From contig NC_132969.1 of NCBI RefSeq assembly GCF_034638445.1, positions 319,423 to 383,422 on the forward strand: a stretch of DNA of 64,000 bases, in the 5' to 3' direction. Source of the stretch: Ciconia boyciana. Taxonomy: Eukaryota. The notes under the pieces are model-generated. The model saw only the letters and a program-made list of their open reading frames with translations. It did no database searches and was not told the DNA's origin. The position numbers were made by a program, and so were the translations under genes. Shown here piece by piece: positions 61,967-62,121 of the stretch (its first letter is position 1; every line of letters begins with the position of its first letter).

Positions 61967-62121
61967 CGTCCAGACGTGGCCCTGGGTGCTCATGTCGCAG
62001 TAGACGGGGAGCGGGGTCCCCCCCGCCCCGCTCGGGGACACCAAGTAGACGCCGTCGGCTCGGGCCCCCGGCGTAGACGTCCTGGCAGTCGCGGGGGACA
62101 GGGGGGGGGCGCAGAGGGGGG
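61967..62121 (-). CDS. FReD gene coding exon (start of fibrinogen domain) carrying an internal 1-nt frame shift
   Basis: Minus-strand acceptor tctcccccAG and donor GTACCC. One frame reads ...[19 protein letters not shown], then after a 1-nt frame slip in gggggcccgagcc it reads [33 protein letters not shown]. Compare angiopoietin RDCADVYQAG...SGIYTIY...VFCNMDVNGGGWTV and ficolin NCKDLLDRG...TIYLPD...VLCDMDTDGGGWTV. The exon begins in phase 2, so upstream exons exist (in repeats or beyond 64000). Confidence 0.65.

Follow-up and report, generated by a model that had tools for sequence, protein, structure and literature searches.

Two compensating frame switches in homopolymers of the first FReD exon of an otherwise intact avian MFAP4 gene: probable length errors of the assembly

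Genes and repeats at the locus

The window, i.e., the whole 64,000-nucleotide stretch of Ciconia boyciana DNA that was analysed, is a GC-rich, repeat-laden bird chromosome region that carries TAOK2 and CDIPT on the plus strand and MFAP4 on the minus strand. The protein search for a full-length bird TAOK2 as frame control returned only short or truncated proteins, and tblastx against the Cuculus locus was used instead. The gene order of MFAP4 with CDIPT and TAOK2 is the same in Cuculus, and in Columba a CDIPT-type gene (PF01066) lies beside MFAP4. The features of the window are as follows:

2783 to about 39597, plus strand: TAOK2, ~37 kb of the window, placed by tblastx against the Cuculus locus
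2783-6909, plus strand: TAOK2 kinase-domain exons
25470-25793, 31420-31659, 35240-35350 and 39403-39597, plus strand: TAOK2 3' exons
40660-45343, plus strand: exons of CDIPT, neighbour of MFAP4
56430..56677, minus strand: MFAP4 exon D, the last coding exon (...KIRRL and TGA stop), intact
58608..58790, minus strand: MFAP4 exon C (LQALHLL...DGGAG), intact, with AG/GT sites and a phase-1 intron on each side
59841..61635, unstranded: minisatellite with the 10-nt unit ACTGGGGGAT, ~174 copies, located in the exon B-exon C intron of MFAP4
61784..61880, minus strand: MFAP4 exon B (VFQKRF...EYWLG), intact, joined by exon A in phase 0
61967..62121, minus strand: MFAP4 exon A, the first FReD exon, homologous to human exon 3, 155 nt, with phase-1 entry and phase-0 exit
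62123..64000 and past the window end, unstranded: minisatellite with the 9-nt unit TGGGGGACA (plus strand), ~212 copies, at least 1.9 kb, in the upstream intron up to the exon A acceptor

Exons A and B form a ~340-nt island between the two minisatellites, each of at least 1.8 kb. Among the large tandem arrays that also fill the introns of TAOK2, the one at 12082-17443 has a 62-nt unit in 86 copies, the one at 31665-33311 is GGT-rich, and the one at 28812-31333 shares its 50-nt unit with a repeat in the Cuculus intron. The distance from the 3' end of CDIPT to that of MFAP4 is ~11 kb (45400-56400) compared with ~0.7 kb in Cuculus; this interval holds C-rich/G-rich tandem arrays at 50769-52798 and 54258-56338 (187-nt unit) and a strong reversal of GC skew at 50-52 kb. 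The window contains 116 G/C homopolymers of 7 nt, 48 of 8 nt, 16 of 9 nt and a few of up to 17 nt, and a run of 12-13 G occupies 61893-61904 in the 86-nt intron that separates exon A from exon B.

Identity and exon structure of MFAP4

In the best explanation of its sequence, the locus is a normal, functional avian MFAP4 (microfibril-associated glycoprotein 4), a known and ordinary gene. In the protein search with the conceptual protein, the closest database proteins were all bird MFAP4, with identities of 94% for Cuculus, 93% for Columba and 92% for Anser, while the best partial-length matches reached 96-97% (Numenius and Columba). The protein searches and cluster listings returned no MFAP4 protein or transcript of the same species and nothing above 94% at full length. 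The conceptual protein matches Pfam Fibrinogen_C with E=6e-72, and the peptide repaired as described below aligns to the human MFAP4 structures 7ZMK and 8UN7 with E ~4e-123, gap-free across the repaired site.

The exons were located by tblastn with ficolin and tenascin FReD queries, which gave four co-linear exons. A second MFAP4 paralogue in the window was considered and rejected, the gene being single-copy by tblastn. The 10-nt-unit array produced spurious weak tblastn matches (CHTGGLTGRYWG) to the FReD query. Exon A, with a GC content of 76%, aligns to exon A of Cuculus, Columba, Colius and Ammospiza; its acceptor AG at 62123-62122 is the only AG near the exon, and its donor GT lies at 61966-61965. 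The segment 61967-62121, in which a reading made previously from the letters and open reading frames (hereafter the sequence-only reading) had placed a frame slip within the first fibrinogen-domain exon, is delimited by these signals as exactly one exon. The frame which that reading had regarded as required for splicing onward does join, in phase 0, exon B at 61880..61784. For exons B-D, the AG/GT sites are canonical, the phases agree and the terminal TGA is present, and exon D is 100% identical to Cuculus across 84 aa (tblastx).

Exons 1-2 of MFAP4 lie beyond the window end, and the segment 62123-64000 is minisatellite; tblastn of N-terminal peptides against 62100-64000 for upstream MFAP4 exons produced nothing beyond low-complexity proline noise. 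In minus-strand translation, the 9-nt-unit minisatellite yields endless P/S/V/C-rich open frames that mimic coding sequence.

Frame switch at the G run

In the minus-strand translation of 62200..61700, the RDC-containing peptide is found in the frame registered at 62198, and ARADGVYLV...HVWT is found in the frame registered at 62200, which runs to the GT donor at 61966-61965. Three-frame translation thus bears out the proposed frame break and its position, a G/C run in the first FReD exon. The elements of exon A that enter into the analysis are listed below:

62111..62113, minus strand: TGC, codon of the conserved upstream Cys that corresponds to human C34; read as Cys in the entry frame only
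62101..62109, minus strand: run of 9 C (plus-strand G9), site of the first switch, at which the APLCAPP frame gives way to the PVPRDC frame; C10 restores one frame
62065..62100, minus strand: out-of-register segment, translated as 13 conserved residues in the other frame and as 12 residues in the straight reading
62085..62093, minus strand: RDC motif, codons CGC GAC TGC, whose Cys is the first intradomain FReD disulphide cysteine (human C41 equivalent)
62065..62069, minus strand: run of 5 G (C5 on the plus strand), the second frame switch, 2 nt short of the 7 G expected

The sequence at the switch is gcc-ggggg-cccgagcc-gac on the minus strand. The spacing C-x5/6-RDC-x6-G-x3-DGV[YH] is invariant in more than 45 bird MFAP4 sequences, and the G-x3-DGVY spacing is also present in human MFAP4; between GGC and GAC, 9 nt are required but only 7 (ccgagcc) are present in the window. 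In blastn against the DNA of Cuculus and Columba, a 2-nt gap in the window falls exactly at the G run, in agreement with the multiple alignment. Judged from these spacings, the anomaly in the G run is a 2-nt deficit and not a 1-nt surplus. The sequence-only reading, which had described a one-nucleotide slip and whose two quoted peptides overlap by 2 nt, was therefore right about the frame switch and wrong about its size. The simplest repair extends G5 to G7, giving GCC GGG GGG GCC CGA GCC GAC. As assembled, the N-terminal FReD Cys of RDC stands in a different frame from its partner in VYCDM, and the two share a frame only after the addition of 2 nt to the G run.

A second, compensating switch at the C run

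A single break, as had been supposed from the letters, does not account for the exon; a second, compensating switch is indicated in the C9 run at 62109..62101 by intron phase, exon length and a conserved Cys. Exon A is entered in phase 1 in Cuculus and Colius, and phase-1 entry at the AG 62123-62122 of the window reads (G)CC CCC CTC TGC GCC CCC CCC, i.e., APLCAPP, in the same frame as ARADGVY. The length of 155 nt is 2 mod 3, as are the 149 nt of the intact Cuculus exon and the 158 nt of that in Colius. Since a lone 2-nt deficit would give 0 mod 3, in conflict with the observed phase and length, a second shift must fall in 62110..62093, ~35 nt upstream of the G-run switch. From the Cys codon at 62113-62111 to the Arg codon of RDC at 62093-62091 there are 17 nt, compared with 15 or 18 nt in the orthologues. 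Furthermore, the RDC frame has Arg where the upstream conserved Cys belongs, the counterpart of human MFAP4 C34, an intermolecular disulphide cysteine (PMC11091212). Most simply, the second break would be a change from C10 to C9 at 62109..62101.

Could the exon instead be entered in the RDC frame, through another acceptor or another intron phase, so that only one frame break exists? The HMM of bird exon A scores both options almost equally, at 109.5 bits for a one-shift repair and 109.7-111.6 bits for two shifts, and with exon 2 outside the window the entry phase is known only through relatives. Against this stand the sole AG at 62123-62122, which together with the phase-1 entry of Cuculus and Colius selects the APLC frame, the length of 155 nt, which is 2 mod 3 like that of the intact exons, and the universal upstream Cys, which occurs only in the APLC frame; entry in the RDC frame is hence considered very improbable. 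The two-shift model would rest on intron phase, exon length and the conserved Cys, and not on the HMM score. An internal mini-intron or an alternative acceptor that would bypass the shift was also considered and rejected, there being no GT...AG and no other AG near the exon.

Consequence for the protein

Together, the two switches amount to a net deficit of 3 nt, so that exon A is open in its entry frame from acceptor to donor, with about 39 nt between the runs out of register. In the straight reading, 12 scrambled residues replace 13 conserved ones, and the RDC cysteine is lost. The homologous bond in fibrinogen gamma is Cys153-Cys182. In MFAP4, the RDC Cys belongs to the intradomain disulphide set (PMC11091212). 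The bird exon-A HMM scores the sequence at 77.7 bits as it stands and at 109.7 bits after repair, a loss of 32 bits. Against Pfam PF00147, the repaired protein gives E=3.5e-72 and 243.2 bits over profile positions 2-219, and the as-assembled protein gives E=9.1e-68 and 228.8 bits over positions 10-219; the straight-read peptide is thus 14 bits and 8 profile positions lower than the repaired one.

As the two anomalies compensate each other, automated annotation would yield a full-length MFAP4 in which 12 residues are wrong and a cysteine is missing, with no frameshift warning. Silent errors of this kind can find their way into orthologue alignments and selection scans, and into claims that a bird gene has been lost or has changed in one lineage.

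Integrity of the rest of the gene

The sequence-only reading had left the choice between a recent pseudogene and an assembly indel in a G/C run; the alternatives were rightly framed, and of the two the indel is favoured, while pseudogenisation gains no other support: the splice sites are intact, stops are lacking and the 154 invariant residues are preserved. The repaired MFAP4 keeps 154 of the 154 columns that are invariant in 25 other birds, and the only 4 residues unique to it all fall in variable columns. No premature stop or lost splice site was found in exons A-D. Neither a truncating stop nor an uncompensated frameshift is present, with the downstream exons and the stop intact, and constraint does not appear relaxed, none of the 154 invariant columns being changed and every AG and GT being in place. 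The sequence thus gives no sign of gene decay. Additionally, no frame breaks were found in the ~2.9 kb of coding sequence of TAOK2, CDIPT and MFAP4 exons B-D, including the G7/G8 runs in CDIPT.

It might still be argued that the indels are real and have left a recent null allele or unitary pseudogene, with the gene non-functional in this bird, since the straight reading destroys a conserved structural motif. This is regarded as quite unlikely: neither a premature stop nor a lost splice site is seen, the terminal stop is where it is expected, the 154 invariant columns are unchanged, MFAP4 is retained across birds, and the frame returns after 39 nt, for which a decaying gene would have no reason. 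The intact old-frame codons of the 39-nt segment probably say little about age, as they could stay unchanged for millions of years even if neutral.

The same exon in other bird assemblies

The orthologous exon in related species, which the sequence-only reading had suggested as a check, reads in one frame in Cuculus, Columba and one Colius haplotype. In Colius striatus, exon A of the haplotype assemblies GCA_028858725.2 and GCA_028858625.2 differs by three 1-nt lengths only, with 0 substitutions, and the conserved peptide is obtained from one haplotype and a scrambled one from the other. Exon A occurs twice in Ammospiza maritima, and the copies are distinguished solely by 2 nt in the homologous G run (9 versus 7); the in-frame length of 8 is found in neither. 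The flanks in Colius and Ammospiza are repetitive and divergent (84-92% identity), and the copies are therefore not clean replicates. Comparison of the Colius haplotypes and of Ammospiza over the whole locus is affected by tandem-repeat introns, with 78-92% identity and out-of-register alignments, and the exon comparison alone is usable.

The two Ammospiza maritima copies lie in GCA_036010785.1 at 4365-4519 and 6838-6990 (coordinates of the retrieved locus), 2.5 kb apart, and both are frame-broken at the G run; the annotated LOW QUALITY protein joins them, and they may be a real tandem or an assembly duplication. In the MFAP4 of Morphnus guianensis, a stretch at the corresponding position is scrambled, and at least 9 bird MFAP4 models carry the NCBI flag LOW QUALITY PROTEIN. 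In the UniProt entry A0A8C3MWA0 of Geospiza/Camarhynchus parvula, the exon-A region is scrambled (PPGLPGRARGGGRARTACTWCPPGG), while the NCBI model has the conserved peptide; this entry is probably another instance of the same problem.

These orthologues also bear on programmed recoding, i.e., ribosomal frameshifting or RNA editing by which the assembled sequence would still yield the normal protein. Nothing speaks for it beyond the frame switches themselves. The frame change is not conserved in the orthologues, which are single-frame in the DNA of Cuculus, Columba and one Colius haplotype and in bird proteins outside the scrambled and LOW QUALITY models; moreover, two different shifts would be needed within 40 nt. 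Recoding is not known in this gene family and is considered to have next to no likelihood.

Origin of the frame anomalies

The assembly has two frame switches, each positioned in a homopolymer, in a gene whose remainder is intact, and the same runs are unstable in other bird assemblies. The frame anomalies are probably homopolymer length errors in the assembly of an intact MFAP4, a technical cause that we infer from these observations. In the mechanism proposed, C10 would have been called as C9 and G7 as G5 in the very GC-rich first FReD exon, and the under-called runs would have put the 39 nt between them out of register. The errors would have arisen in the reads or the consensus, in a short island of exons between G-rich minisatellites, and the animal itself would carry no such mutation. 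Both switches fall in homopolymers, and the addition of one C and two G alone restores a peptide with the spacing that is invariant in birds. The same runs vary between assemblies or haplotypes without substitutions in the Colius pair and the Ammospiza copies, with divergent flanks. Clustering of false indels in GC-rich 5'-proximal exons is known from bird assemblies (Kim et al. 2022, Genome Biol 23:204, PMC9516821).

Several points speak against a technical origin. The remainder of the window is clean, so that a local cause would be needed for two errors within a single exon of 155 nt. The deficits total exactly 3 nt, an outcome that chance would give about 1 time in 3 and a selected compensatory mutation always. 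Furthermore, an under-call of 2 nt in a 7-nt run is large for high-accuracy reads, and the Colius and Ammospiza copies are, with their divergent flanks, imperfect replicates.

Some of these points lend weight to a correct sequence, in which a recent compensating pair of slippages, with 1 nt lost from the C run and 2 nt from the G run, would have arisen in this lineage, whether fixed or polymorphic, in a gene that is still expressed and translated across both runs without interruption. Overall, exactly 3 nt are lost, and no stop interrupts the exon; homopolymers are hot spots of real slippage too; and the rest of the window is without frame errors, even in coding runs of G7-G8. The preserved old-frame codons would be compatible with a fairly recent event, as 39 nt would gain few substitutions over several million years. 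If such a pair were real, 13 residues at the start of the FReD would be rewritten and an otherwise invariant disulphide cysteine deleted; the intradomain bond might then pass to the upstream Cys (human C34 equivalent), with covalent dimerisation given up in exchange, and the bird would offer a natural experiment on the dispensability of the first FReD disulphide. However, the lost Cys and its spacing are invariant in more than 45 bird sequences and human MFAP4, and this Cys is part of the intradomain disulphide set. All other constrained positions are kept, which indicates a protein still under selection, and noise in the length of these runs has been seen in other assemblies. A real compensating pair is accordingly rated as unlikely, and an assembly indel is clearly favoured over a recent mutation.

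With the assembly error as the preferred explanation, the main value of the case is that of a quality flag: exon A of avian MFAP4 is a recurrent trouble spot across long-read assemblies. Long G/C runs in coding sequence would be candidates for length errors of the same kind. For the run lengths at this locus, the k-mer pairs are GCCGGGGGCCCGAGCC versus GCCGGGGGGGCCCGAGCC and GCGCCCCCCCCCTGT versus GCGCCCCCCCCCCTGT.

Comparison with known systems

In compensated frameshift pairs, nearby indels total a multiple of three and a short peptide is rewritten, and the genuine cases known usually lie in tolerant regions. Unlike these, the rewritten stretch in the window holds an invariant disulphide cysteine.

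The FReD of human MFAP4 (7ZMK, 8UN7) is 79% identical to that of the window gene, with the conserved cysteines common to both, and the FReD of avian MFAP4 (Cuculus canorus XP_053908983.1, Columba livia XP_064900379.1) is 92-94% identical. The four-exon FReD structure, the intron phases, the C-terminal KIRRL and the neighbouring genes are alike in the human, the annotated avian and the window gene. In contrast to the human and annotated avian genes, the first FReD exon of the window has 39 nt out of register, from the C9 run to the G5 run.

The frame-disrupted MFAP4 of Colius, Ammospiza and Morphnus is affected in the same exon as that of the window, with a scrambled stretch between correctly framed sequence, and in Colius and Ammospiza the same C and G runs differ in length. 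The length changes themselves are different (+1, +1, +1 in Colius; +1, -1 in Ammospiza; -1, -2 in the window) and are in each case those of assembly sequence alone. Finally, the cases of Kim et al. 2022 (PMC9516821) and the window share a GC-rich early coding bird exon with small frame-breaking indels; the errors described there were validated with reads of the same individual, whereas the present case is known from the assembly alone.
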